Shown here: piece by piece, positions 4,901 to 37,868 of the stretch
How the letters are laid out: every line of letters begins with the position of its first letter
Numbering within the stretch: the first letter of the stretch is position 1
Source: a virus
IMG/VR virus record: IMGVR_UViG_3300045988_128374
Location: 1-38,069 of that record
Reading direction: 5' to 3' (one strand)
DNA length: 38,069 nucleotides
The notes under the pieces: model-generated
What the model was told of the DNA's origin: nothing
The model's input: the letters and a program-made list of their open reading frames with translations, nothing else
The model's database searches: none
Translations under genes and position numbers: made by a program

Positions 4901-6392
4901 TTGTATTATCTTGCCAATATGACATGCCGTTTTCGCTGTGAACTTTAAATTTAGTTGTATTAAGGTCGAGAGCCGTAATCTTATCTGCGGCTATACTTTC
5001 TATCATTGCAGACTTTATCTGTGCATCACCGATATTCGCAACAATGCTGTTGCTAAATTCCGTTGTAAGGCTTCCACCTGACGCAGAGCCGAACATAAGT
5101 GTATTTACCTTTTCAACCTCAGCCGTTAAATCTGAAATATGTGATACGGCTGATTCAAAGTCTTTTGCATAAAAATCTTCAAATTTTCCTTCTACACCAT
5201 CGAGCTTCTCGATTGTTGCGTATTTTATATCAGCTTCATTTGTCTGCAAATAATTATTTTTTATGCTTAATATATCAGCCTCTATTGAAATTACCTTCTC
5301 AGATGTAACTGTATTCGCTTTTACCCATTCAGCATCTACTTTTTTAGCAACAAGTTCTTTTGTTGTAATAAGTTCCGAATACATTCTTTCAACTGCTTTT
5401 GATGTCGGACCTTTGAAATCTGTGCTTGTCTCAACTTCTGTTTTTCCGAATGATTTTACAGTCATAGACATTCCGCCGTCATACTCATATACTATATTCA
5501 TAACTGGCACACTATACTCAACGCCATTAACTGCTGCCGTTATAATATCCCATACATCTAGTCGTATATCTGCAGGTGCTTTTAACTCAACTTCTCTATA
5601 TGTAAATCCTTTTATTTTATTATATACATCTTCAAGGCCTGAAGATGTCATAAATGGATTATCAAATGTTACGCCGAGCGTTCCGCCTCCTGCTGTGTAT
5701 GAATTTGAATTGTCTATATTGGCTGTTAAATAATCTAAATGATAATTGCTCTCTGTTTTTTCAAATGCCATGATTCGTGATAAATCAAGTTTGAAATCTG
5801 TTTGCTCATACCATTTTATAATTATAGTTCCTATTCTGTTCACACAAGCAAAGCCTCCGACAAGTGAAGCTATATAACCTATCATCTCGCGGCATGTATA
5901 ACCTTCAGGTCTTTTTTCAATAACAACATCAATACCTGATGTATCTATCAGAACCCCGCACTGAACACTAATTTCATTCAATACATCTTTTGCTTTCGCA
6001 GGATATGATAAATCTGATATGTATATCCCTGTTGTTTTTATCATTCTGTCGTATGCTGTAAATGTCGTTGAATTTTCATCATTCGTAGGATGCTCTGCCG
6101 TAAATATTCCAACCGGAACATATTCATATGCACCACCTTGCAGTTTTAATCCGATTTCTACTGAAATCTCTGTATTTTCAAAAAGCTCGTCTATCTTTGC
6201 AACTGTAAGCTCTATTTTAGCCGAAACTGCCGAACCGAGTTGTAATGACTCTTCACTGCTTGAAGAATTCTCATACGTCATCTTTTTTAACCCGGTGCTA
6301 TACCATTTGCCGTTAATCTTTAATCGTGCATTAAATGTTCTTGAAGGACTTCTTATTGTATTTATAAATTCTTCTGAAACTTCACTATACAT
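1974..6392 (-). CDS. Giant tail fibre / receptor-binding tail protein (1472 aa) with C-terminal S74-type intramolecular chaperone
   Basis: The RBS AGGAG precedes ATG 6392. The gene lies downstream of the tape measure. It has coiled-coil-like Ser/Thr/Asn-rich segments and two duplicated about 150-aa modules. The C-terminus resembles peptidase S74 auto-cleaving chaperones (SSDSDRNVKKDI...HHGLIAQEV...YDELIA). Confidence 0.85.
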   Translation of the reverse strand: MYSEVSEEFINTIRSPSRTFNARLKINGKWYSTGLKKMTYENSSSSEESLQLGSAVSAKIELTVAKIDELFENTEISVEIGLKLQGGAYEYVPVGIFTAEHPTNDENSTTFTAYDRMIKTTGIYISDLSYPAKAKDVLNEISVQCGVLIDTSGIDVVIEKRPEGYTCREMIGYIASLVGGFACVNRIGTIIIKWYEQTDFKLDLSRIMAFEKTESNYHLDYLTANIDNSNSYTAGGGTLGVTFDNPFMTSSGLEDVYNKIKGFTYREVELKAPADIRLDVWDIITAAVNGVEYSVPVMNIVYEYDGGMSMTVKSFGKTEVETSTDFKGPTSKAVERMYSELITTKELVAKKVDAEWVKANTVTSEKVISIEADILSIKNNYLQTNEADIKYATIEKLDGVEGKFEDFYAKDFESAVSHISDLTAEVEKVNTLMFGSASGGSLTTEFSNSIVANIGDAQIKSAMIESIAADKITALDLNTTKFKVHSENGMSYWQDNTIIIKDSNRIRVQIGKDANSDYNMYVWDKSGNLMFDALGLTESGVQREIIRNDMIKEDANINASKLDIESLFNVINEDGSHTLKSSKIYVDANKQTLDIVFKNMTTNVTNLQNTVTTQGTQLTAVQGQISSKVWQQDISTAVNNLQIGGRNLFQGTKKFVFQNVIALDGVGGVIIAEQYKGLTVRLKTTAWNFYRPTINLEAGSYVFSAYAKGNTIYKVQMLVVDTVKQINIQSSLFSITGDWEKYYINFTIKEKTNVRFYFESTGAGDIYECGWKLEEGNKATDWTPAPEDIDVDISSVDTKVTTVSNQYTSLNQSLTSLTATVNSNTTKINSKADGSTVTALQSNMTALTADLNGFKTTVSETYTSKTEFNDLQIGGRNLLLNTADLTKWTCEDKTTVAKDVDGFFKILTTQKTSWFSIYQTVTAVSAGQTYMLSGYNKKGTKAGYVVIRYYKSGTANILLQQNVSAGRFTIKFTVPAGADSKINVYLGLQPTASGDYTYFKLPKLEFGDKATDWTPAPEDIDEKFTEYSSTTQMNSAITQSANSVLTTVSSNYATKASLEVKIDKDKLISEINASADVITLKSNRFVLDSTNAKIAADGTVNFVQGTIAGWNISSTRLSGSAGLYGISLNKPASTSTKVININHIDTTAAATYVDDFYVRADGYTYIPDGYLSTKNHSVGGKGIEIYESQIKFYSWTDKDNFTGKIYTSYIDGGNSGSQNKRQALVICSDFNDELHLDYSDENRKIYTAIVIDQNADHKIHMRVPTVYHTEIQSYNDENYPVTVNSNFSVGKKGTEKIARFWCYNGGDTTKSIRIFNAGEEAGRYVNNCELSLWGTGRVQYNWYVNGTIYGNVSSDSDRNVKKDIQALDIDNSAQFIYSLIPSEFRFKNGTSNRLHHGLIAQEVKESMGDSDWGLFIDKKVDDENYNEIAINELTDEQTQLMTARYSLRYDELIADLIATVQSLNNRLKALEQ
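1977..2336 (-). other. Peptidase_S74-like intramolecular chaperone auto-processing domain (fibre aa ~1353-1472)
   Basis: The motifs S-D-x-R-x-K-K-D-I, GLIAQEV and a terminal coiled coil (LIATVQSLNNRLKALE) are present. Confidence 0.7.
3330..3782 (-). repeat. Intragenic duplicated module 2 of the fibre (aa 871-1021)
   Basis: The module starts LQIGGRNLLL and ends KLEFGDKATDWTPAPEDID. It is a paralogue of the module at 4023-4472. Confidence 0.75.
4023..4472 (-). repeat. Intragenic duplicated module 1 of the fibre (aa 641-790)
   Basis: The module starts LQIGGRNLFQ and ends KLEEGNKATDWTPAPEDID. Its beta-rich composition suggests a jelly-roll or carbohydrate-binding-like unit. Confidence 0.75.
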
Positions 6393-6395
6393 ACA

Positions 6396-6797
6396 TTACT
6401 CCTGTATCATAAATTCAAGCGTCTCCATTTCTTTTAAAGAAATACTGTCATAGTCCCCACTGTCACATGTTTCGATCAATTCAAGCGACAATGGCATGAG
6501 TTCAATCTCAACCTCTGTATCATTAATCTCACCAATTTCTTTAATTGTATTTTCCTTGATTTCATCAGAATCAAACTGATAAGCCCCATCTTTTACAACC
6601 GGTCTTCCCTCATCATCTTTTAAACATCTGTCTTTTAAAATTTTTGCTCTTAATTCGTCTGCATTTTGTGCCTCTGACGCTAATGTTTTTATGTTTTTTG
6701 CAATCGCATAGCTTAATTTTACCGGAAAATGTTTATTTATCTCATGCAATTGACTTAATTTCTCGTATACCGTTTTAATTCTCATTGTCTGTTTCAT
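6396..6797 (-). CDS. Hypothetical tail-module protein (133 aa, acidic)
   Basis: The ORF is tightly packed between the small Dit-like ORF and the fibre gene on the same strand. I recognise no family. Confidence 0.6.
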   Translation of the reverse strand: MKQTMRIKTVYEKLSQLHEINKHFPVKLSYAIAKNIKTLASEAQNADELRAKILKDRCLKDDEGRPVVKDGAYQFDSDEIKENTIKEIGEINDTEVEIELMPLSLELIETCDSGDYDSISLKEMETLEFMIQE

Positions 6798-6817
6798 TTT
6801 CTGATTCCTTTCCTATA

Positions 6818-7168
6818 TTACTGCTGTATAATCTGAACACTTGCACTTCTGTAATAAAATATACCGTCGTCAAGTCTGCCTATCTGCTCTTTACTAAGTG
6901 TTCCCCTATAAGTTGGTATTGTTATGTCCTGCCCGTCATCATGGAATGTTATCGGGAAAAATCCGGCAATCAGCTTATTTTTTATTACCATAAGCTCTGA
7001 TTCCTGCAATATTCCCCAATTAACAGACAAGGTCTTCTTCTCAGCAACAACATCTCCCAGCATTGTGCCGTCAAGTGTACGTCCTGTAGCGGAAGACCAT
7101 AATATCTCATCATCCACTTTGAGAGAGACAGGAGCCGGAAGCTCCTGCCCGTCACATCTCAGTATCAA
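6818..7168 (-). CDS. Small tail protein immediately after the tape measure (possible minimal distal tail protein)
   Basis: This 116-aa beta-rich ORF lies 12 nt downstream of the TMP stop. The call rests on position only. Confidence 0.55.
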   Translation of the reverse strand: MILRCDGQELPAPVSLKVDDEILWSSATGRTLDGTMLGDVVAEKKTLSVNWGILQESELMVIKNKLIAGFFPITFHDDGQDITIPTYRGTLSKEQIGRLDDGIFYYRSASVQIIQQ

Positions 7169-7180
7169 TTCATCACATCC

Positions 7181-9985
7181 TTATGTTATAATCTCACATT
7201 TCCCTGTTGCTTTTGTATGCTCGTTAATCTTATCTACCACATACTTTTTAAGGCTCTTCCCGTCAAGCTGTATATCAAGATCCAATGTTTCAAGAATCCT
7301 AAGTATCTGTTTAAGAATACTTATAGCCTCTGCCAAAAGTTCGGCACTTGAAGCCATATCTGCTGCCTTTTGTGCCATTTCAAGCAATTTATCCTCAGGT
7401 GCAACAACTTCACCCTGATGTTTGTTATCGCCAATCATGGCAAGCTGTGGAGTGTTTGGCTTTACATATCCACCTTCTGCAAGGTATGGGATACTGCCAA
7501 ATCCAACTTCCGGTAAATCAAACCCGAAATGGTCACCACCTATAACCGGTACCCAGTCAGGTACATCAAAGCTTAATCCATTTATCTTACGGACTATCCA
7601 GTTAATACCACTTTCTAATCCATCAAGCATACCATTTATAAGTCCGATTACCATATTAATAGGTCCTTTGGCTATGTCTGCAATTAAAGAGAATATTCCA
7701 CCAAAGGCATCCACAATACCATTCCAGGCTCTTGACCAGTCACCTGAAAATACCCCAGCAATAAAGTCAATCAATCCACCAAATATCTGCTTTACGTCAC
7801 CAAATATATTAGAAACATTTTGCAAATAAGCATTCATTATATCGCCTATAAAGCCGAAGCTATCTGAAAAATCCATGTTAAAAATATTCTGTAGCCAATT
7901 ATCAAATGAAGAAAATGCTGACCTTATATTTTCCCAAACACCTGCGAACCACTCCCCGGCAGAGTTCCATTTTCCAACAATCCAATCCCAGCATATTCCG
8001 GCCGCTTCTTTCACAACATCCCAATGTTTTACAAGTTCATAAATTCCAACTCCTAATGCGACCAATGCCGCAATAACCAATGTTATCGGACTTGTCAGAA
8101 CCGTCATTGCAACGCCAAATGCGGTTGTGGCTGCTGTTGCAAGCCATGTTGCCGCTGTATGTGCTACCGTTGCGGTTGTATCTGCTACTTTTACGGCTGT
8201 ATCACTTACCCATGCTACAGCAGATGAAGATAATTTTGCTATTGTCTGTCCTACACTTTTAACAAAATCCTTTGCATACATAGCACATAACTGAATAGTT
8301 TCTATCTTATCTTTAAGCTTTACTACCGTGCACGCTTCTATTGCCTTTTTCAGCTTATTTATAATCCCAACAACACCGCCAGCATTCATAAGAAATTCTG
8401 CTAAATCTACCGCTTTCCAAGCTGCTGCAAATGCTCCTATAGTAACTACGATTGCATCAAATGGACCTTGATTATCCTTTATCCAATCAGATATACCCTC
8501 TAATGCAGATGCCAATCCTTTCAGAACATCAACAATCACTCCACCAGTCCAACTCGCCACAGGCTCAAGGAAATTATCCCAAGCCCACATCCACAATGGC
8601 TTCAATGCATCTAACGCACTATTCAGTACATCTAAACAGCCTGCTAATACATCAAGAAATGCTGGAAGCAAATCTTCTATAGTCCACTTAGCCAAAGGAA
8701 CAAATATATTGTAATAAGCCCATTCCAATCCAGCGAACAACTTATCTGTTAATGGTTGTGCAGCTTTCTTAAGGTTATCAAGAGATGTTATCAGATTATC
8801 AAAGGATATTGCTTTAAGTGGCTCTAATGCTTTCTTGACTTTATCTGCCATATCAGATATTGCACTAGAAACATTAGATGTACTTCCACTCACATCCGGT
8901 ACAAGGTCAACACTTCCAATTCCTGAAGATGTTCCCCCTGTACTGCCACTTGAATCAGAACTATCATCTGTTGGCTCTGTAAGCTTATTTATCTGGTCAA
9001 AGCCTGCAAGTGACCTCTCTATATCTTTAGCTGTCTTCTTGGCTGCACTTCCAATATCTCCCACATTGTCCGCCGCACTGGATGCATCATCTCCTATACC
9101 AGCTATATCCGAACTTATCGAACCCATAGAGGTTGATACGTCTGCTCCTGTAAGCATTTGCACAAAGTTTGCAAAACCATCGGCAACCTTCTGTAATCCT
9201 GCCAACAAGCTGTTAAAGCCTCGCAAGATAGGTGTAAACAATGCTATGAAGCCTTTGCCAAGACTTGCTTTTAACTGCTCAAATCTCAGTGATAATATCC
9301 TTGTCTGATTCGCCCAAGAATCCTGTGTCTTAGCAAAGTCTCCTGTGGCATTAGATAAAGCACTCGTAACATACTGAAAACGCAGCATTACTTTTTCCTG
9401 CTCTGTCATTTTGGCGGTAGTCTTACCAAAACCGTTATTAAGAGCATACTGGTCTAAGTTCGTCTGAGTCATGACAACACCTAAGTCCTTGAGTGTTTCC
9501 GTTTCACCTGTCCAGATAGATTTCAGCTTTGTATATGCTTCATCCGTACTAAGATTGTAAAATGATGCAACATCACCGGTTAATCCTGTGACATTTTCAG
9601 CCATATCAAGTGCCGCCTTACCTGTAATACCCATAGCATTACTCATCTGGCCAAACACACCCATGTACTTCTTAGCCGATAATTCCGATAAGCCAAAGTT
9701 AGTCATAGCATTGGAAGCCCACTGGTCTGCCTGCCAACTTAAGTCCTTAAATGCTGTATCAACAACATTCTGCACTTCTGTTACATTGGAACCTACTTCT
9801 ATGCAGTCTTTCGTGAACTTAGTAAAAGCTGCTATACTTAATCCAGCAGCTATCTTCTTTCCCATCCCAGAAAAGATGGATGTTGCCTGCTTAGCTGCCT
9901 TATTGGAAGCTCCTGTGAGTTGATTAACTATCTGTGAACTGTCTATGCCAAGTTCCAGAGCTATCTGTCCTACTACATCCGACAT
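7181..9985 (-). CDS. Tape measure protein (934 aa)
   Basis: GGAGGGAG precedes ATG 9985. The protein is long and Ala/Gly/Ser-rich, with hydrophobic central helices and glycine-zipper-like repeats. It lies after the tail chaperone pair. Confidence 0.9.
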   Translation of the reverse strand: MSDVVGQIALELGIDSSQIVNQLTGASNKAAKQATSIFSGMGKKIAAGLSIAAFTKFTKDCIEVGSNVTEVQNVVDTAFKDLSWQADQWASNAMTNFGLSELSAKKYMGVFGQMSNAMGITGKAALDMAENVTGLTGDVASFYNLSTDEAYTKLKSIWTGETETLKDLGVVMTQTNLDQYALNNGFGKTTAKMTEQEKVMLRFQYVTSALSNATGDFAKTQDSWANQTRILSLRFEQLKASLGKGFIALFTPILRGFNSLLAGLQKVADGFANFVQMLTGADVSTSMGSISSDIAGIGDDASSAADNVGDIGSAAKKTAKDIERSLAGFDQINKLTEPTDDSSDSSGSTGGTSSGIGSVDLVPDVSGSTSNVSSAISDMADKVKKALEPLKAISFDNLITSLDNLKKAAQPLTDKLFAGLEWAYYNIFVPLAKWTIEDLLPAFLDVLAGCLDVLNSALDALKPLWMWAWDNFLEPVASWTGGVIVDVLKGLASALEGISDWIKDNQGPFDAIVVTIGAFAAAWKAVDLAEFLMNAGGVVGIINKLKKAIEACTVVKLKDKIETIQLCAMYAKDFVKSVGQTIAKLSSSAVAWVSDTAVKVADTTATVAHTAATWLATAATTAFGVAMTVLTSPITLVIAALVALGVGIYELVKHWDVVKEAAGICWDWIVGKWNSAGEWFAGVWENIRSAFSSFDNWLQNIFNMDFSDSFGFIGDIMNAYLQNVSNIFGDVKQIFGGLIDFIAGVFSGDWSRAWNGIVDAFGGIFSLIADIAKGPINMVIGLINGMLDGLESGINWIVRKINGLSFDVPDWVPVIGGDHFGFDLPEVGFGSIPYLAEGGYVKPNTPQLAMIGDNKHQGEVVAPEDKLLEMAQKAADMASSAELLAEAISILKQILRILETLDLDIQLDGKSLKKYVVDKINEHTKATGKCEIIT

Positions 9986-18590: not shown

Positions 18591-19979
18591 TTATGTCTTA
18601 TTCTCTATACCTATCCTGCTTCGATAAGGAATCCAGCCATACTGTACGCTGTTTACCATATGGTCATTGCCATCCTCAGGCTCACAGTCCTTATCCTCAA
18701 GCCACGAATACGTTTCTAACTCTGTCTTGTAATTCGTGCACGTATCGACAATATAAAAGCTTGGCTCTCTACCCTTCTTATCGTTAAAGGACATCCAGCC
18801 AAGCTGTAAGTTAATTCTATCTATTATGGTTACTTTCTTATACGCATTGTTAAATATATACTGGCAGTCAATGTGTTCTCTCTTGTACTTGGCAAACTCT
18901 GTTATCGTTGCCTGATCAGCGTTATCTATAAACACATTCTTTGACATTCCACCCCATTCTTTTCTGTTACGCTCCAGGAAGTCTATGTAATTCCTTACCG
19001 TATCAGACGGAGCTATTGGTATATCAAGTTCTGCATTGTTATACACCTTTTCATCCAGCACTATCAACTTGCCCTTGTTTGTTATTCCCATAAAGGACAT
19101 AGCAATCGTATCCGGGCTCTTGGTTGAATAAGCTGTATCAAGTCCGCTGGTGAATATTATGAAATATTCGCCCTGCATTTTATCAACCTCACGTCTGATG
19201 TATGACTTTGCCTGCTCTCTGGTAATGATATGCCTATTGCAGAAATTAGAAAAGACAAGACCGGTAGCCTTGCCTCGTAATCCTAATATCTTATTCTTGT
19301 ATATCTTAGTACCCGGCGGATAACTTAATTTCTTCTGTTCTATCTTCTCAGGTGTCATAGATATGTTATCTATCATCCTGAAGAACCAATATACCCAGTT
19401 CTTAATAGGCTCACATCCTTTCAGATCTTTCCATATTTCTTCCGGCACATCTGCCTTGTACTTATCAATCGGTCTTGCGTGATTGATGTATTCTGAATAT
19501 ATGGGTAATGTAGGTGCATCTGGGTTCAGAGTACCAACAAAGTATTCAGAACGTCCGAATATCTCTCGTATGAAGTCTATGTTAGCTGTATTGCACTCAT
19601 CTACCCACACACAACCAAACTGTGAACCCAAGGCATTCTTCCACTTGCTGGCATTATCGTAACCGAGAACATATATTATCTTGGTACTGCTGCCAGTTTT
19701 GAATTTAATATGCGGAAGTTTATTTTCTTTATCACCATTACCGCAATATTCCAGATTGGGAAATATCTGAAGCAAACCCATATCTGCGTTTATGATATTC
19801 TTCTCAATAACACCTGTCGTATTACCAGCTATAACATGCAGCTTCATATCTGATTCAGCTACATTCATAATGAACTTAACAGCTACTGTTGTTGTCTTTC
19901 CGGAGGCAGTTGAACCCTCTAAGAACTCTGCTCTTGCAGGTGTGTCTATGTAATCCCAGTACTTATTACTTAGAAGCAT
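18591..19979 (-). CDS. terL: Terminase large subunit
   Basis: The Walker A motif is GSTASGKTT, and a C-terminal nuclease-type acidic motif is present. Start placed at ATG 19979, overlapping the terS end. An upstream in-frame start at 20027 is possible. Confidence 0.92.
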   Translation of the reverse strand: MLLSNKYWDYIDTPARAEFLEGSTASGKTTTVAVKFIMNVAESDMKLHVIAGNTTGVIEKNIINADMGLLQIFPNLEYCGNGDKENKLPHIKFKTGSSTKIIYVLGYDNASKWKNALGSQFGCVWVDECNTANIDFIREIFGRSEYFVGTLNPDAPTLPIYSEYINHARPIDKYKADVPEEIWKDLKGCEPIKNWVYWFFRMIDNISMTPEKIEQKKLSYPPGTKIYKNKILGLRGKATGLVFSNFCNRHIITREQAKSYIRREVDKMQGEYFIIFTSGLDTAYSTKSPDTIAMSFMGITNKGKLIVLDEKVYNNAELDIPIAPSDTVRNYIDFLERNRKEWGGMSKNVFIDNADQATITEFAKYKREHIDCQYIFNNAYKKVTIIDRINLQLGWMSFNDKKGREPSFYIVDTCTNYKTELETYSWLEDKDCEPEDGNDHMVNSVQYGWIPYRSRIGIENKT

Positions 19980-20556
19980 CTGGCTCACCCCTTGCTTTAC
20001 GCTGTGCAAGAAGCTCCTGTAATTCACTCCTGGTTGTATCGTTTACATTGGCTTCTATCTTGTCTGTGAATATACCTAAATGCTTGCCAAGAAGCTCTAA
20101 GGCCTTAACCTTGTCACAGGACTTAACTTCTAATCCATCTCTACCCTTCTTGATAACAGCAAGTGCCCTCTTCTGTTCCTCTGTAAGTTCTTCCGTAAGT
20201 ACCGGCTCTACTGTTCTATACATAACAGGTTTACCATCTTCATCCAACACATCCACAAGTGCTCCATCTACTTCTGCTTTCATCTTCTTTTCAACCACAT
20301 GTGCATAATCAGCATTATTAGAAAAAGCTATCAAGGCAAGTTCCTTGATAACTCTCTCCTGGGTTATCTCTGTACTCCTTGATAGCTCTTTTTGTCTCTT
20401 TGCTATATATTCTTCAATCTGAGGTTTTCTGAGGTTGTCTGCTCCTGTTCTATACGCTGTTTTTTCTGAATATCCTGCCCTAATAGCCGCCTGCGTGGCA
20501 TTAAGGTCTATAAGGTATTCATCACAGAACCGCTTCTGTTTTGCTGTTAATGACAT
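19966..20556 (-). CDS. terS: Terminase small subunit (Terminase_2-like)
   Basis: The N-terminus (LTAKQKRFCDEYLIDLNATQAAIRAGYSEKTA...) is typical of terS. AAAGGAG precedes ATG 20556. Confidence 0.9.
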   Translation of the reverse strand: MSLTAKQKRFCDEYLIDLNATQAAIRAGYSEKTAYRTGADNLRKPQIEEYIAKRQKELSRSTEITQERVIKELALIAFSNNADYAHVVEKKMKAEVDGALVDVLDEDGKPVMYRTVEPVLTEELTEEQKRALAVIKKGRDGLEVKSCDKVKALELLGKHLGIFTDKIEANVNDTTRSELQELLAQRKARGEPDASK

Positions 20557-20581
20557 GCAATCAGCTCCTTTCTAGCATAAT

Positions 20582-20613
20582 AAAAGCATCGACTATTTAA
20601 TGTCGATGCTTTT
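20582..20613 (-). terminator. Strong, symmetric (potentially bidirectional) hairpin terminator after the 67-aa ORF
   Basis: AAAAGCATCGAC, an 8-nt loop, then GTCGATGCTTTT. The stem is a perfect 12 bp with A and T runs on either side. Confidence 0.6.
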
Positions 20614-20653
20614 AATTTATCATAAATATATTAATTCATATCCCTATGCACAA

Positions 20654-20857
20654 TTATACTCCCATTTTTACCAAAACCATATACCCCAATAATGAAAATA
20701 CTATCGTAACTACATTTGTAATAGCATTAACGCAAATCGAATGTCCTTTTGTTTTAAACAAATTTTCAACATTACAAAATTTACATACAAACTGTATAAC
20801 AAATGTTCTCACAACTATAAATATCAAAATAAATATACTAATTCCATAAATAAACAT
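20654..20857 (-). CDS. Small two-TM membrane protein (67 aa), second gene of the AT-rich cassette
   Basis: AAGGAG lies 8 nt before ATG 20857. Two hydrophobic helices are present (ISIFILIFIVV, VVTIVFSLLGYMVLV). The ORF starts 21 nt after the 389-aa ORF. Confidence 0.55.
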   Translation of the reverse strand: MFIYGISIFILIFIVVRTFVIQFVCKFCNVENLFKTKGHSICVNAITNVVTIVFSLLGYMVLVKMGV

Positions 20858-20878
20858 CAGGCATTCTCCTTTCGTTTA

Positions 20879-22048
20879 TTAATCTTCATCATTTCCCATC
20901 AATAAATTTGCACCATACTCTTGTAATTCTTCTAAATAACTTTGAATTTCATCATCCAATATGCCACATTCTTTCATTTCCTTGTATAATCTTAATTTAT
21001 TATCATAATTTTCGATTTTCTTATTTTCCAAATCCATTTTTTGATTCTCTAAATTTATCTTTTTTTGTTCTACTTCTACTCCAACTGTTTTGATTTGTTT
21101 ATATAAATCTATTGGATTTGGAACCTTTATATTACCTATTTGTCCACCACTAATTACTATATATAGTCCTACAATGCCTGCTACCGCTTTAGACATTTTA
21201 CCTTTATTTCTATAGTTTTGCTCATCTTTCTTTGCATCATATGCCTTATCTAAATTTCTTTTCCCCGATGTAAAAGAAATTACACCTTTTGAATTCAAAT
21301 TAAGCATAATTGATAATTCATTCTCACCAACAACCCTTTTCATATAGCAATCTACGCAGCTCATTACTTTTGTTATTGAAGTTAAATCTATTGGTTTACT
21401 TGTATTTATATGCATTTGAAAAGAATAAGCTTCTCTCCAATAATATATAGGATATATCGTATCTAATATATATTTTCCATATTCATTTAAATTACAAATT
21501 CCCTGATATGATGATAATACTTTTAACAATTTAACATGTAGATTAGTATAATTGACTATCTTAATGATTTTAATTTTACGTCTTTTTTTATATGGGCATT
21601 TAACACTATATAATGGAATATTTTCCATATCTATTTTTGTTATTACATCAATTTCATCATCTTCGTTTAAATTATTCTGCTCATAATATTCGCCAACTTC
21701 AGCAAATGCTATTTTATTATCTTGCACTCCTGGAATCATAACAATATCGCCTATTTTTAAATTATATATGAATTTTTTACATTTACTAATTGCTTGACCC
21801 GGCCTTTTATCTCCATATATATTTTTTATATTTTCTTTAAGTATTTCAATCTGTTCATTTTTCATTGAATTGATTTCCATATTTAAATCTATTATATTCC
21901 ATCCCAATGCTACATAATTATTCTCTATGTATTCATTAAAAAAATAGCCTTTTTTTGTTCTTATCATCCAAAAATTTATATCTCCATTAATATATGGAAG
22001 TTCATAATTCAATATTTCTTTTATAAAATCTTCATTTATTTTCTCCAT
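20879..22048 (-). CDS. Unknown 389-aa protein: N-terminal sensor-like module, one hydrophobic segment, C-terminal coiled coil (accessory moron gene)
   Basis: GGGGG lies 5 nt before ATG 22048. The gene is very AT-rich compared with its flanks. The hydrophobic segment is at aa ~287-305 (KAVAGIVGLYIVISGGQIG). The C-terminus has the heptad-like sequence KKINLENQKMDLENKKIENYDNKL. Confidence 0.8.
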   Translation of the reverse strand: MEKINEDFIKEILNYELPYINGDINFWMIRTKKGYFFNEYIENNYVALGWNIIDLNMEINSMKNEQIEILKENIKNIYGDKRPGQAISKCKKFIYNLKIGDIVMIPGVQDNKIAFAEVGEYYEQNNLNEDDEIDVITKIDMENIPLYSVKCPYKKRRKIKIIKIVNYTNLHVKLLKVLSSYQGICNLNEYGKYILDTIYPIYYWREAYSFQMHINTSKPIDLTSITKVMSCVDCYMKRVVGENELSIMLNLNSKGVISFTSGKRNLDKAYDAKKDEQNYRNKGKMSKAVAGIVGLYIVISGGQIGNIKVPNPIDLYKQIKTVGVEVEQKKINLENQKMDLENKKIENYDNKLRLYKEMKECGILDDEIQSYLEELQEYGANLLMGNDED

Positions 22049-22099
22049 AAAAACCCCCTATAAGTTTTCTTGCGTATAATATTATACTAAATAATGACA

Positions 22100-22138
22100 A
22101 AAATCAACAAAACAAGGCACCAGCTTTCGCCGATGCCT
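22100..22138 (-). terminator. Rho-independent terminator after the late regulator gene
   Basis: The minus strand reads AGGCATCGGC-GAAA-GCTGGTGCCT followed by TGTTTTGTTGATTTTT. A TATAAT box (minus strand, 22081-22086) follows it. Confidence 0.6.
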
Positions 22139-22251
22139 CAGAGGGGGAGTTTTAATGATTGTATTGGCTGTCATCAGCCTATGGTTCAATGAATTTTTCA
22201 TCTGTTCCAGTTTAAATATTATCATATCAAAGTACGACATTTACGACAAAC

Positions 22252-22701
22252 TTATAATTTTTTCAAATATCTTTCAAGTGTCTTTTGGCAGCTATCTGCT
22301 GTATGATTTTTTCCCATTCTGTGAGCTATCTGAACCCATGTCAATTCATCAATGTACCGATATGTAAGAAGTCTTCTTATCCTGCTGTTTGGTTCCGAAT
22401 TAATAAATTCTTCTGCCACAGCTATCTGCTGCCGTATCTTCTCTTCTAGCTCCTGTAACTTAATTTTTCTCAATAGTAACTGTGATTTTTTCTCCGTATA
22501 TATTGGATAGGGGAAACCTTCAATCTTAAAATGCTGTTCCCCGCCATTTCCTCCCGAAACGCTGTCAATAACGGCTCCCTCTTTTTCTAATTTTTCAATA
22601 TACTGTTCAAGCCGTAATATAGCCTGCCGCTTGTCCTTATATTCTTCCTTTAAATCTGCTAACTGTTTTAAATACTCTTTTACATTCCCTTTTAAACTCA
22701 T
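22252..22701 (-). CDS. Late-gene transcriptional regulator, sigma-70 region-4-like (DUF1492/ArpU/RinA class)
   Basis: This is a 149-aa ORF. Its C-terminal HTH (RRLLTYRYIDELTWVQIAHRMG...SCQKTLERYLKKL) resembles region 4. It is the last early gene before the packaging module. Confidence 0.72.
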   Translation of the reverse strand: MSLKGNVKEYLKQLADLKEEYKDKRQAILRLEQYIEKLEKEGAVIDSVSGGNGGEQHFKIEGFPYPIYTEKKSQLLLRKIKLQELEEKIRQQIAVAEEFINSEPNSRIRRLLTYRYIDELTWVQIAHRMGKNHTADSCQKTLERYLKKL

Positions 22702-22769
22702 ATATCCACTTCCCTTATTGATTATATCTGTTTTTCATGCTACAATACATATGTTCGGTATATGAGTTT

Positions 22770-22809
22770 AGGAAGCCTGCGTATTCGTGTGTTACAGGCT
22801 TCCTTTTTC
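22770..22809 (+). other. 10-bp perfect hairpin with a T run on the plus strand (antisense-oriented terminator, or a 5'-UTR structure of the late regulator mRNA)
   Basis: AGGAAGCCTG, a 15-nt loop, then CAGGCTTCCT followed by TTTTCTTT on the plus strand. On the minus strand it lies between a TATAAT box and the late regulator RBS. Confidence 0.4.
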
Positions 22810-22841
22810 TTTGCTTGATTATACTTAAAAGTAATAGATTA

Positions 22842-23408
22842 TTATATATCAATTTTTAACTTTTTAGTATATTCTTCATCATATTGTTTTCTTTTGTCTA
22901 TCATACCATCTATAACCCGTTTATAATCAGAATAAAAATTTTCTTTAATAATTACGCTCTGTAATTTACTTATAAACGTATATATGCAGTATATATATAT
23001 TATTGCCAAAATTATTATCATAATATGTTGAAAAATAATAACGCCAATATTATAATATCCTATGCCAAATATATTCATTATGGAATCAAAAATTTTTTCT
23101 GTAATTAAAGTTAATAATACTACAATTATTATATCAGCTTCCTTTTTTAGTACTCCCATATTTCTCTTCTTTTGATTTAAATAGTCACTAAAATCTTTTA
23201 ATTTATCATCAGAAAATTGTTTATATTTATTGATAATATACCTTTCCCATTGTTTTTTACTTTCAAATTTGTTATCAGACTTCAATGTTTTTTTAGTTGA
23301 CTTATCCATAAATCCTCTACACAAATACGTATATATATCTCTTTCTTGTTTATCATCAAATCCATAATAATAAACTCCCAAGTTATTAAGATTTCTTTTT
23401 ATTCTCAT
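22842..23408 (-). CDS. AT-rich membrane protein (188 aa from ATG 23408), unknown function
   Basis: GGAG lies 5 nt before ATG 23408. The N-terminal half is soluble and Lys-rich, followed by 2-3 hydrophobic helices (IIIVVLLTLI, IGVIIFQHIMIIILAIIYIYCIYTFI). GC content is very low. Confidence 0.7.
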   Translation of the reverse strand: MRIKRNLNNLGVYYYGFDDKQERDIYTYLCRGFMDKSTKKTLKSDNKFESKKQWERYIINKYKQFSDDKLKDFSDYLNQKKRNMGVLKKEADIIIVVLLTLITEKIFDSIMNIFGIGYYNIGVIIFQHIMIIILAIIYIYCIYTFISKLQSVIIKENFYSDYKRVIDGMIDKRKQYDEEYTKKLKIDI

Positions 23409-23483
23409 TTTATACTCCAATCATAATGTGATAATTAAATCATATCACTCATGTCATTATAATTCAATTATACGTATATATTA

Positions 23484-23921
23484 CTAACTTTGCCTTCCTG
23501 TAATCTCTGCTTTTATTCTATTATTTTCTTCCTGCAAGACCATGTTCTGCTCTTTCAAATCCTTTATTTTCCTTAATGTCTCCATCATTTTGCACTCAGT
23601 TTCATATTCACACTGTGTGTCAGGCATATACTCTATACACATTTCACATATTTCTTCTCTGTCCATCCTCTGCTCCATGCGGTCCTGTTTATACTGTATC
23701 TGCTGCCCTATTTCTGTATCATCAATGTCATAAATATCTTTCAGCATTTCAAGGTATATTGTTACGTCTGCCATTTCTTCAACAAGGCTTTCTTTGCTTC
23801 CTATACCTCTTATCTGCTTGCTTACTGCCTGTATCAGTTCTGAACATTCTTCCATGCATATAACGCTCTGTGTTATTCTGCCATATTCTTTAATGGATCT
23901 TTCGATTATGTCCTTATTCAT
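23484..23921 (-). CDS. MazG-like nucleotide pyrophosphohydrolase with a Cys-rich / coiled-coil C-terminal extension
   Basis: The motif is EECSELIQAVSK...VEEMADVTIYLEML (the EExxE...ExxD pattern of all-alpha NTP-PPases). Confidence 0.78.
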   Translation of the reverse strand: MNKDIIERSIKEYGRITQSVICMEECSELIQAVSKQIRGIGSKESLVEEMADVTIYLEMLKDIYDIDDTEIGQQIQYKQDRMEQRMDREEICEMCIEYMPDTQCEYETECKMMETLRKIKDLKEQNMVLQEENNRIKAEITGRQS

Positions 23922-34474: not shown

Positions 34475-34858
34475 ATGTGCCTTGGTGAAAACATACGTTT
34501 TTTAAGAACTAAAAAAGGATATTCTCAAGATGACATAGCCAATATGCTTGGTTATAAATCATTTACTACAATACAAAAATGGGAGTCTGGTGTTTCTGAA
34601 CCACCACTTAAAGCCTTAAAGAAATTATCTGAAATATTTAATATAGATATGAATGATTTAGCTACAAAAAAACTCTCTTATAATACTAATGAAGATAATA
34701 ATGTATATTATCTTGATGATGATGCAAGAGATATGGCTCAGTTCTTATATGAGAACCCTGATTATAAAGTTCTCTTTGATGCATCACGCAAGGTTAAAAA
34801 AGAAGATATTCAGTTTGTAAAGGAGATGATTGACCGAATGTCTAACAAAAATGATTAA
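34475..34858 (+). CDS. cI-like XRE-family repressor (127 aa)
   Basis: The HTH reads IRFLRTKKGYSQDDIANMLGYKSFTTIQKWESG. A C-terminal non-HTH domain is present. The gene is divergent from cro and followed by the ImmA-like ORF. Confidence 0.87.
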   Translation: MCLGENIRFLRTKKGYSQDDIANMLGYKSFTTIQKWESGVSEPPLKALKKLSEIFNIDMNDLATKKLSYNTNEDNNVYYLDDDARDMAQFLYENPDYKVLFDASRKVKKEDIQFVKEMIDRMSNKND

Positions 34859-35109: not shown

Positions 35110-36258
35110 ATGTTAATTAGCAAATCTGATTTAAAATCATTGAAAAAACAATACAACTTCTTAATGCATAATAAATTTTATATTTCTGTTCGTTATGTAC
35201 ATGGAATACCTAATCAAAAATTATCTACATGTGTTGTTGGATTATTTGAGGCTGGGTTGTTTCTTGATTTTTTTCTTGGCAAAAAATACATATATAACAT
35301 AAAAGATATTTCTAATGTTTTTTATTCAACATATTATATAGTTATTGAGTTTGCAGATAACTCGTTTTGGACATTAGTAGGTAATGAAAAACAAGTTACT
35401 AAAATATATTCCATATTAACTACAGAATACAATATTTCTTCAATAAGTAAAAATATTACGGACTATTTACCTAATATTATACCTAGCAATTCTGTGTCTG
35501 AAACATTAGAACATAATGAAATATCTGCATTAACAAATACTGAAAATGAAATAGAAACACCTGATAAAGCTGGATATGAACTTCCTGTTCAGATAAATGA
35601 TATTCATGAAACTGATAATAATGCTACTGCCCAAGAAAAACATATTGAGAATAAGGATGAACATATTAATTTTCCTGATTGGTATATCTCTGTATCTTTT
35701 GGGAAATCATCTTCAAGTAATTATATGAAAGCCGTTATGCTTGCGCAACAGGCTCCTCAATATCATACCCAGACTGACAATGGTGTTATCCTGCATCAAG
35801 CCATATATTCTAGCAAACCTAATGAATATCTTTCATTTATTAGTCTATATGAGCTTGTAGCAAACTGGAAATCATCTTTTGTAATAATCAATGGTAAAAT
35901 TATTGATAGAAAAATTGTAGGACAATTAAATTACTGTTATGGTGATAAATGCAGAAGTGGAAATCCTAATTTTTGTTATGGAGCAAGCTATATGACAGAA
36001 AACCCATTTGGCTGCCACCGACTTCAAGTAAGTGCTGCTAATAATCCATGGTGGTCATTCTATAGACTGATAGGAAACACATATGTTCTTAATCAAGCTG
36101 AGCTTAAAGAACGAATTGACTCTTATGCCTCTATATATTGCATATGTCCTTGTTTTAATTACACAAAAATTATTCAGGCATATAATTCTTTACCTGTTAA
36201 GTTATCACAAAAGAAATATGCTAAATTGTGGGCTGAGGGATTTGGACTTAAAATGTAG
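35110..36258 (+). CDS. Unknown 382-aa lysogeny-module cargo protein (candidate exclusion/defence or conversion gene)
   Basis: GGGGGA lies 6 nt before ATG 35110. The gene is AT-rich. Its layout is a beta-rich N-terminal ~115 aa, an Asn/Glu/Thr-rich linker, then a Cys-containing ~195-aa C-terminal domain. A strong terminator follows. Confidence 0.8.
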   Translation: MLISKSDLKSLKKQYNFLMHNKFYISVRYVHGIPNQKLSTCVVGLFEAGLFLDFFLGKKYIYNIKDISNVFYSTYYIVIEFADNSFWTLVGNEKQVTKIYSILTTEYNISSISKNITDYLPNIIPSNSVSETLEHNEISALTNTENEIETPDKAGYELPVQINDIHETDNNATAQEKHIENKDEHINFPDWYISVSFGKSSSSNYMKAVMLAQQAPQYHTQTDNGVILHQAIYSSKPNEYLSFISLYELVANWKSSFVIINGKIIDRKIVGQLNYCYGDKCRSGNPNFCYGASYMTENPFGCHRLQVSAANNPWWSFYRLIGNTYVLNQAELKERIDSYASIYCICPCFNYTKIIQAYNSLPVKLSQKKYAKLWAEGFGLKM

Positions 36259-36561: not shown

Positions 36562-36611
36562 TCTGAACACCGCTTTTGCAAGTAGGTGTTATTTTTGTAC
36601 CCATTTTTACT

Positions 36612-36627
36612 GTTGCACCAGTGCAAC
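36612..36627. promoter_or_regulatory. Variant palindrome GTTGCACCAGTGCAAC, copy 4 of 4, in the integrase leader
   Basis: It has one mismatch to the other three copies, the same T-[palindrome]-TT context, and lies 30 nt upstream of the int ATG. Confidence 0.55.
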
Positions 36628-36656
36628 TTCCCCAAAAACAGAAAGGAATGATTAAT

Positions 36657-37868
36657 ATGAAAAAGAAAATATCTAAGGTCCTTACATATAAGCGTGGCAA
36701 TCTATGGGCCTATCGTTTCGAATCTGCCCCTGTAGATAGCAAAAGGAAGTGGATTACCAAGAGCGGATTTAAGAACCAATCTGAGGCATATGAAGCCGGT
36801 ATGGTCGCATACACACAATATAAACAGACTGGCAAGAGCTTCACTCCATCTAATATCTCTGTATCTGATTACATGGATTACTGGATTGATAATTATTGCA
36901 AGGTCAATCTTAAAGCTAATACGGCATCAACTTACAAAAAGAAAATTGATTTATATATAAAGCCGGCTATTGGTTCATATTATCTTAAAGACATAGAGCC
37001 AAGTCTTCTCCAGGAGCTTATAAATAATCTTTTTAATACCGGAATGTCGCGAAACTCTCTCGGCAATGTTAAGGGCATTCTTACCAAGTCATTTGCCTAC
37101 GCAAAGACTACTGCAAGATTTATTAATGATGACCCTTCTGCAACTATTTCTCTTCCGCTTCCAAGAGCAAAGGCAGAGGTTAAAACCAAAAAGAAAGTAA
37201 GAGTCGTATGGACTAATGAACAGCTTGATACTGTCTTTAAAACATTTGCACAAGGACATATATATCATATGCCACTTCTTCTCGCTTATAGGTGCGGCAT
37301 GCGTCTGGGTGAGATATTTGGTCTTATGTGGGATGATATAGACTTTGATAATGGAATATTAAGCATTAACAGACAGGTACAGAATCATGATGATAAATGG
37401 TATCTGGAAAACCCTAAATATGATTCATTTCGTACCATAGAACTTGATGATACAACGCTTTCAGAACTTAAAAGGATGTACGAACATGAAAAGGAATGTG
37501 AACAGTACTATAATGAATATTACAATTATATCTACTGTGAGACACTTGAAGATGACTCTAAGAGACTTACTTATGAGCCGGCTGGCGAATCAATGCATAT
37601 GGTGCTTGTAAGAGATGATGGCTCATGGATTCAGCCAAGAACAATGATGCACTGTTTTAATGTTATTCATCACAAGCTTGGCTTCACTGAGCTTGATTTC
37701 CATTCTCTCAGGCATACACACGCTTCTAATTTACTTGCCAAAGGAGCTGATGTTAAATATGTACAAGAGCGTCTGGGACATAAAAATGTAGCAACCACTC
37801 TTGATATATATGCCCATGTCACAGAAACCATGCGTGAGCGCAACAAGGACATATTAAATACACTATAA
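36657..37868 (+). CDS. int: Tyrosine recombinase / phage integrase
   Basis: Start placed at ATG 36657 (MKKKISKV) after GAAAGGA. The catalytic motifs are RCGMRLGEI, HSLRHTHAS and LGHKNVATTLDIYAHV. An N-terminal SAM-like arm/core-binding region is present. Confidence 0.93.
   Translation: MKKKISKVLTYKRGNLWAYRFESAPVDSKRKWITKSGFKNQSEAYEAGMVAYTQYKQTGKSFTPSNISVSDYMDYWIDNYCKVNLKANTASTYKKKIDLYIKPAIGSYYLKDIEPSLLQELINNLFNTGMSRNSLGNVKGILTKSFAYAKTTARFINDDPSATISLPLPRAKAEVKTKKKVRVVWTNEQLDTVFKTFAQGHIYHMPLLLAYRCGMRLGEIFGLMWDDIDFDNGILSINRQVQNHDDKWYLENPKYDSFRTIELDDTTLSELKRMYEHEKECEQYYNEYYNYIYCETLEDDSKRLTYEPAGESMHMVLVRDDGSWIQPRTMMHCFNVIHHKLGFTELDFHSLRHTHASNLLAKGADVKYVQERLGHKNVATTLDIYAHVTETMRERNKDILNTL

Follow-up and report, generated by a model that had tools for sequence, protein, structure and literature searches.

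The 38,069-nucleotide viral DNA IMGVR_UViG_3300045988_128374 from IMG/VR (this whole stretch is called the window below) carries on its minus strand a cassette of two genes, which encode proteins of 389 and 67 amino acids (aa) and lie between a late-regulator-like gene and the gene of the terminase small subunit (terS). The host phage is a temperate, Lachnospiraceae-type gut phage into which the cassette has been swapped as a moron; the phage can do without it, and as cargo it is mobile and foreign in base composition. As to its function, we infer, with a probability of about 0.5, that it is a lysogen-expressed defence module in which a sensor is coupled to a membrane effector and aborts infection. 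The larger protein belongs to the DUF8426 family, and its N-terminal part is modelled as a divergent YTH-like domain.

Both genes were found where the earlier note had placed them. The ATG of the 67-aa open reading frame (ORF) lies 21 nt past the stop of the 389-aa ORF, and each gene has its own ribosome-binding site, GGGGG at 22054-22058 for the 389-aa gene and AGGAG at 20866-20870 for the 67-aa gene (Table 1). The GC content of the cassette is 0.252 against 0.381 in the remaining window, and GC at third codon positions is 0.17-0.19 against 0.35-0.44 in terS and in the large-subunit gene terL, so the cassette is indeed more AT-rich than the genes that flank it. With a 79%-identical variant as the reference, the ratio of nonsynonymous to synonymous substitution rates (dN/dS) was 0.13 for the 389-aa gene and 0.30 for the 67-aa gene, indicating that purifying selection acts on both. 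The window is a complete temperate phage with an integrase, a helix-turn-helix (HTH) repressor, and a PF05105 holin (1415-1900) adjoining a GH25 endolysin (328-1437). Lysis does not depend on the cassette, for the phage possesses a holin and an endolysin of its own. A megablast search of the first 25 kb of the window against GenBank phages gave no match, and a search of Rfam over 20300-22800 found none.

The occupancy of the position between the regulator and terS was compared in 80 IMG/VR loci with a terS 79-100% identical to that of the window, 65 of which contain both flanking genes. The slot is empty in 27 of the 65, where the regulator stands directly upstream of terS with a gap of only 156-171 bp at the backbone GC of 0.40; the cassette therefore interrupts a junction that is normally tight, as had been claimed. 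In the other 38 loci the slot is filled with at least eight different AT-rich cargos. This cassette is present in four of the 65 loci, two more carriers having no regulator match in the stored DNA, and the GC content of the other AT-rich inserts is 0.24-0.31. One phage (L015) differs in its cargo even though its terS is 100% and its regulator 95% identical. Several cargos consist of a soluble protein with a transmembrane protein or of a lone transmembrane protein; cargo proteins of 272 and 338 aa have transmembrane helices at the C-terminus, and the 326-aa protein of locus L025 matched PDC-M67A (E 3e-17) and RexA (E 7.8e-5). On these comparisons, the slot between the late regulator and terS is a hotspot of cargo and recombination. 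Variability among relatives had been set beforehand as a test, and the cassette proved to be variable and not syntenically fixed. Because the slot is empty or differently filled in relatives, the cassette is a moron by the comparative definition, and the moron layout proposed in the earlier note is borne out.

The cassette with its slot also crosses between phages of different packaging modules, as follows from the large-subunit types at two loci. The identical P0003 protein with its 67-aa partner occurs at 7496-9622 of L004, where a shorter terS (147 aa) and a large subunit of the Terminase_3 type follow downstream; the large subunit of L003 is of the Terminase_6N type. A second AT-rich gene (GC 0.22) lies at 22842-23420 (-), directly upstream of the late regulator, with a hairpin at about 22770-22802 behind it. 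It encodes 192 aa with two to three transmembrane helices, probably from an ATG at 23408, and the protein had no match in Pfam, PADLOC, PHROGs or NCBIfam. The gene is found in L031 (98% identical) and is absent in L022, although L022 has the DUF8426 cassette, and its position looks like an independent variable slot.

Morons were reportedly defined for lambdoid phages by Juhala, Hendrix and colleagues. Like those, the cassette is extra DNA between genes that are adjacent in relatives, with a differing base composition, a promoter-like element ahead and a hairpin behind; the difference is that the promoter-like element and the upstream hairpin are here common to all cargo types, and what is exchanged seems to be a cassette with a terminator-like hairpin on either side. 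Both bracketing hairpins are present. Hairpin A, at the regulator side (-19 kcal/mol, z -4.0), and hairpin B, at the terS side (-18.4 kcal/mol, z -5.7), were each equalled by 0 of 200 shuffles, and five terminator-like sites were observed in 20300-23600 against 0.7 expected. The TATAAT box at 22081-22086 on the minus strand is preceded by TTGTTG at a spacer of 18 nt, the -35 box being weak, and a stringent promoter scan did not call this element. The earlier note had regarded the TATAAT box and the upstream hairpin as belonging to the cassette. Both exist, but neither is private to it: the sequence shared with phages of other cargos extends across the element and the hairpin alike. Hairpin A is kept at loci with other cargos and stands about 25 nt before the terS ATG in empty-slot phages, and five of eight different types of cargo have a related element, TTTTGTTGAYTTTTGAYAT...TAGTTATATTAT, in front of them. 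The hairpin and the TATAAT element belong to the slot, or to every one of its cargo modules.

At the terS side, the backbone includes the 3' half of hairpin B, its T run and the ribosome-binding site of terS, and homology to other-cargo and empty-slot phages picks up again at 20571-20601. The junction alignments place the cargo-specific DNA from about 22075-22080 to about 20586-20601, and because they separate shared from cargo-specific DNA in this way, each cargo carries its own terminal hairpin. Exchange seems to occur between the two hairpin/T-run joints. Right after the regulator stop, repeated TGTCG/TGTTCG boxes followed by TAATAT were seen at 22210-22250 (-) (L061 and L071 junctions), and they may be the late promoter. 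If so, hairpin A would form part of the late transcript's 5' leader, and one may ask how transcription gets past it to reach terS. A 52-aa ORF (MSYFDMIIFKLEQ...) at 22082-22240 (-) spans the leader and the upstream hairpin and is kept in L015, L022 and L023; what is conserved there is probably regulatory DNA of the backbone, not a gene.

The 389-aa protein matched phrog_10226, a PHROG of unknown function, with an E-value of 1.6e-57 over aa 10-344. The assignment to PF28530 (DUF8426, also of unknown function) is indirect, being precomputed on the 99% identical protein P0001 and on most homologues. We found 134 homologues, and public records label the protein 'hypothetical protein'. Local sequence searches of Pfam-A, NCBIfam and PDB gave nothing significant for the 389-aa or the 67-aa protein, and a Pfam scan of 125 diverse relatives found nothing. 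As the earlier note had stated, neither protein matched a characterised family. The literature searched on DUF8426, YTH-like defence systems and terS-proximal hotspots contained no description of this family, and neither that literature nor the 2023 PADLOC library described a membrane-anchored YTH-like reader with a two-transmembrane partner.

The full-length protein was modelled with AlphaFold2 at a mean predicted local distance difference test (pLDDT) score of 83.8 and a predicted template modelling (pTM) score of 0.82, and the model of aa 14-200 alone reached a pLDDT of 91.8. In a Foldseek search of PDB with the domain model, the top 50 matches were all YTH domains (best E 7e-4, probability 0.97-1.0, TM-score 0.39-0.55). 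On the basis of this model, aa 14-200 are read as a YTH-like member of the PUA/EVE superfold, which we call divergent because no Pfam YTH or EVE model matches it. The N-terminal 200 residues are strongly conserved in an alignment of 53 relatives, in particular F26, W27, R30, G34, W50, N51, D101, P106, Y121 and E123 together with the basic motif C151-P-Y-K-K-R-R157. Among 125 more distant members, R30, G34, D101, S253 and G255 are invariant, and W27, W50, F93, C151, K155, R156 and G301 are conserved in at least 90%. S253 and G255 belong to an invariant NLNSxG motif at the end of the middle domain. Full-length Foldseek matches outside the YTH fold (Hsp90 and ferredoxin-like folds) were rejected as low-probability noise, leaving no fold for the middle domain, and BFVD yielded one full-length uncharacterised viral homologue and a weak ASCH match. 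The N-domain superfamily comprises 2554 clusters at an E-value up to 1e-3 and 229 at an E-value up to 1e-30 (clusters at 50% identity).

The single hydrophobic segment noted earlier was found at aa 289-307, with a Kyte-Doolittle hydropathy of 1.56. The helix is kept in all 53 aligned relatives (median 1.72), and in 104 of 124 full-length representatives its value is at least 1.5. Lysine and arginine residues flanking it number 2.8 upstream versus 1.7 downstream, charges that weakly favour an N-in orientation. The C-terminal coiled coil was also recovered, predicted as three long helices (aa 312-335, 341-361 and 366-381); the C-terminal tail of the family has a net charge of about -10, and one relative matched the N-terminal coiled coil of H-NS. 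The family's helix, GG hinge and next helix align weakly with the short transmembrane helix, glycine hinge and amphipathic helix of TatA/TatB. The match to TatB is not significant (E 0.03) and the large N-terminal cytoplasmic domain implies another topology, so homology was rejected and the likeness is kept as an analogy of shape.

The two hydrophobic helices claimed for the 67-aa protein were confirmed, with Kyte-Doolittle values of 2.6 and 2.1, and the protein has a lysine-rich loop with the motif K..(V/G)E.LF. It had no match in Pfam, PADLOC, PHROG or NCBIfam and belongs to no holin family found there. A co-directional homologue lies 1-31 nt downstream in eight clades whose large protein is 34-40% identical to that of the window, and the ORF is called as a gene in the public record DAO61107.1. 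Its conservation behind the large gene and the dN/dS of 0.30 identify it as a real gene. A small two-transmembrane ORF adjoins the 3' end of the large gene in 24 of 40 loci, against a background of 2.3% at random positions in the same loci, and relaxed thresholds added two more loci. The co-directional 67-aa partner is limited to the closest clades; elsewhere the small two-transmembrane ORF is convergent or absent. In distant clades a convergent ORF of 57-96 aa abuts or overlaps the 3' end of the large gene; it is annotated as a coding sequence in phages SF39 and phiPaco and predicted elsewhere by independent gene callers. Such ORFs were located at L001 4986-5183, L002 4932-5105, L009 7205-7438, L129 6115-6327, L132 6085-6327, L135 5097-5336 and L137 5082-5336, all on the minus strand. 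They overlap the 3' ends of the distant DUF8426 genes by 30-80 nt, which suggests control by antisense RNA or transcriptional interference, and several have an MKK start and a C-terminal LRLPL.EW motif. Homology between the co-directional and convergent proteins (hhalign probability 94%, identity 6%) was rejected, the match being put down to hydrophobic composition.

The PADLOC profile of the defence candidate PDC-S02 (PDLC04806) matched aa 25-128 of the 389-aa protein over profile positions 3-105 of 324 with an E-value of 1.1e-12, and in relatives the match reaches position ~165. The earlier note had likened the N-terminal module to one that is joined to nuclease-type effectors in defence proteins, and this likeness holds for the N-terminal 100-170 positions of PDC-S02 (E 1e-12). 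P0154, a true PDC-S02 protein (E 2.5e-80), joins a YTH-like domain to a NucS_C / PD-(D/E)xK nuclease. No nuclease family in Pfam, NCBIfam or PADLOC matched the window protein, as the earlier note had also supposed. Because P0154 joins the domain to a nuclease, the window protein may be described as a PDC-S02 sensor with its effector swapped; because the nuclease is lacking, the cassette is not a member of PDC-S02. PDC-S02, a single-gene candidate of about 300-350 aa, shares the W...R...G, GW(N), GD.V..P and KRR motifs with it. The two differ behind these motifs, where PDC-S02 has a C-terminal NucS_C / YhcG PD-(D/E)xK nuclease and the window protein instead continues with the middle domain, hydrophobic helix and coiled coil, accompanied by the two-transmembrane partner.

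By analogy, the cassette would resemble two known kinds of system, namely a prophage defence module of sensor and membrane effector, and a fusion of a PUA-type reader with an effector. Fusions of PUA-superfamily sensors with nucleases are modification-dependent restriction enzymes (PMC6765204), and domains of the EVE and YTH-like kinds are met repeatedly in defence and toxin-antitoxin systems and in prophages (bioRxiv 10.1101/2020.08.06.240630; PMC11090510). The cassette protein shares with the YTH, EVE and ASCH readers of modification-dependent restriction enzymes and of CoCoNuT/McrBC systems a similar fold and the logic of reader plus effector (PMC6765204, PMC11090510), and in the model its conserved tryptophans and basic patch would fit the binding of a base and of the backbone. 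The effector here is a membrane module, whereas those systems use a nuclease or GTPase; searching the text of the EVE/DCD survey (10.1101/2020.08.06.240630) for 'transmembrane' gave no result. RexA/RexB of lambda and the RexA-like PDC-M67 pairs are likewise two-gene prophage modules of a cytoplasmic sensor and a small membrane protein, and sibling phages have a RexA-like pair at precisely this position. The sensor of the present cassette is itself predicted to be membrane-anchored and its partner has two transmembrane helices, not four. Neither cassette protein matched RexA or RexB in PADLOC, the RexA-like match belonging to the other cargo in L025, and for lack of homology the cassette is not a Rex system.

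In about 12 independent contexts, the DUF8426 gene was always found at an accessory position of a prophage. One is the regulator-terS slot, including a phage with a different terminase type. Another is directly after holin and endolysin at the prophage end, beside HicAB or a recombinase. A third is immediately downstream of, and co-oriented with, a CI-like repressor or ImmA, with the integrase further downstream and HicAB, Fic, PBECR3 and Fst-type toxins also among the neighbours; this position implies expression in the lysogen for those homologues. At the prophage end in Clostridium tepidiprofundi (L135), the DUF8426 gene has a neighbour at 5677-7266 with a metallo-beta-lactamase fold and a weak match to Anti-Pycsar Apyc1, a possible counter-defence gene beside a possible defence gene. 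In the window, the HTH repressor (34475-34858) and the integrase (36576-37868) enclose an AT-rich ORF of 382 aa at 35110-36258 (+), in the lysogeny-module slot used by DUF8426 homologues elsewhere. This ORF had no Pfam match and is unrelated to DUF8426, and the idea of a second copy was dropped.

We propose that the 389-aa protein would be anchored in the membrane by its hydrophobic helix, with the N-terminal 280 residues in the cytoplasm, and would oligomerise through the C-terminal coiled coil. The YTH-like domain may bind nucleic acid of an incoming phage, probably by means of a base, flipped out or modified, that the conserved tryptophans enclose, with the KKRR motif making backbone contacts. 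Binding would be relayed to the membrane part, which, together with the small two-transmembrane protein, would perturb or permeabilise the membrane and abort the infection in the manner of RexA/RexB. The sensor would then be that of PDC-S02, its nuclease effector exchanged for a membrane module. That DUF8426 proteins as a whole are membrane-anchored readers of modified or foreign nucleic acid, which depolarise the cell instead of cutting, is a tentative extension that we consider possible, if rather doubtful.

Several observations weigh against the defence module. PDC-S02 itself is only an unvalidated candidate, and its single tested representative did not protect E. coli B from T4, T5 or T7 (bioRxiv 10.1101/2024.09.26.614923). 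The structural match to YTH domains is moderate at the TM-scores given above, with a root-mean-square deviation of 6-10 Å and about 10% identity, and no Pfam YTH, EVE or ASCH model matched the window protein at an E-value up to 1 or the 125 relatives at an E-value up to 1e-3. At 1.56, the hydropathy of the window protein's helix is borderline for a transmembrane segment. The two-transmembrane partner is missing in about one third of the loci and is for that reason not an obligatory effector. Expression in the lysogen is derived only from a weak promoter-like motif and from the homologues in repressor operons.

The location between the late regulator and terS, which is retained even where the DUF8426 protein shares only 39% identity with that of the window, could suggest that the phage has here a conserved component with a structural, packaging or late-regulatory role. 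The empty slot in 27 of 65 relatives and the unrelated genes in others, the presence of the same gene in lysogeny modules and at prophage ends, and a composition foreign to the phage make this extremely unlikely, and for a virion or packaging role the comparative data on slot occupancy in the 65 loci amount to an effective refutation. The same occupancy speaks against a modulator of the phage's own life cycle or of host physiology (antiholin-like timing, a membrane tether for DNA or RNA, or lysogenic conversion) with no anti-phage role, in that very close relatives lack the cassette or have an unrelated cargo. Several homologues do stand directly behind holin and endolysin, the partner is of holin size with two transmembrane helices, and late transcripts toward terS must cross the cassette, so that late expression is possible too. 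The phage, however, has its canonical PF05105 holin and GH25 endolysin, no holin or antiholin family in Pfam or PHROG was matched, and positions after the lysis genes are prophage ends, the usual sites of cargo. We therefore regard a role of this kind as unlikely.

Superinfection exclusion, in which the anchored protein, with or without its partner, blocks DNA entry of related phages while the cell survives, is likewise an unlikely account, which would make the cassette resemble Sie2009/Ltp, HK97 gp15 or T4 Imm. Many homologues of the cassette gene stand between repressor and integrase, where lactococcal and streptococcal phages have their sie genes; the 389-aa protein is predicted to be membrane-anchored, and its acidic C-terminal tail could face outward. 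Sie proteins, however, are not known to have a large conserved cytoplasmic nucleic-acid-reader domain, and PDC-S02 couples the same sensor to an intracellular nuclease, which points to recognition inside the cell. A toxin-antitoxin or addiction module that stabilises the prophage, with the two-transmembrane peptide as a membrane toxin restrained by the DUF8426 protein or by convergent transcription, would account for the convergent ORF found in most of the distant clades, whose overlap of 30-80 nt is like that of antisense-controlled small toxins, and for the HicAB, Fst-type and ParE-type modules among the neighbours. It is nevertheless improbable: the genes of the window are co-directional and 21 nt apart like those of an ordinary operon, the small ORF is lacking in that third of the loci, and a strongly conserved protein of 389 aa and three domains far exceeds what an antitoxin needs. 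A module that senses infection and acts at the membrane to abort it is thus the explanation we prefer.

The regulator flanking the slot matched phrog_36, annotated 'transcriptional regulator', with an E-value of 2.9e-13, its matches to Sigma70_r4 and DUF1492 being weak. Table 1 gives the positions of this gene and of the other features, including the cargos of related phages.

Table 1 Features of the cassette and its slot in the window, and other cargos found in the same slot of related phages.
Feature	Location	Strand	Basis
389-aa DUF8426-family protein, core gene of the cassette	20879..22048	-	ORF
67-aa two-transmembrane partner	20654..20857	-	ORF and AGGAG ribosome-binding site
N-terminal domain read as YTH-like (PUA/EVE superfamily), aa 14-200	21449..22009	-	model and Foldseek
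Middle domain, beta-beta-alpha-beta-beta, aa 201-262	21263..21448	-	secondary structure of the model
Conserved hydrophobic helix, aa 289-307, followed by GG motif; putative membrane anchor	21128..21184	-	hydropathy
C-terminal helical/coiled-coil region, aa 312-381, acidic tail	20906..21115	-	model
Promoter-like element TTGTTG-N18-TATAAT, start of the cargo	22081..22110	-	read from the sequence
Hairpin A with T run, backbone, left slot edge	22113..22140	-	stem of 11-12 bp
Hairpin B, right cargo edge	20581..20614	-	stem of 13 bp
149-aa late-regulator-like protein, backbone, upstream of the slot	22252..22701	-	sigma-70 region 4 / DUF1492-like
Terminase small subunit (terS), backbone gene downstream of the slot	19966..20556	-	PF03592 E 1.6e-43; phrog_51 E 3.4e-47
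Cargo: pair of 326-aa protein and 189-aa transmembrane protein	L025/L028 3372-4933		matches to PADLOC PDC-M67A/B, RexA, DUF6731
Cargo: pair of 319-aa protein and 180-aa transmembrane protein	L015/L043
Cargo: 206/214-aa multi-transmembrane coiled-coil proteins	L021/L023
Cargo: ParA-like ATPase with 133-aa and 223-aa partners	L049/L037
Cargo: 338-aa protein with C-terminal transmembrane helices	L038/L064
Cargo: 92-aa transmembrane protein	L045/L027

A slot that holds at least eight types of cargo between two hairpins is a compact site to mine for further candidate systems in phages of the human gut microbiome. The DUF8426 family amounts to at least 229 clusters at 50% identity (N-domain E of 1e-30 or better), with nearly all top representatives predicted to be membrane-anchored, and it occurs only at the sites at which cargo for expression in the lysogen is kept by the temperate phages of gut Clostridia, streptococci and fusobacteria. 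If the cassette is a defence module, it would add a design of reader plus membrane effector to PUA/YTH-based immunity, and the PDC-S02 sensor would gain a second, independent effector, which would argue for its being a genuine immune sensor. If DUF8426 proteins do read nucleic acid and depolarise the cell, recognition of the type IV (modification-dependent) restriction kind would be wired to a membrane effector, often with a two-transmembrane partner, and the incoming genome or its transcripts would be sensed at the inner face of the membrane by an exchangeable cargo of gut Firmicute prophages.

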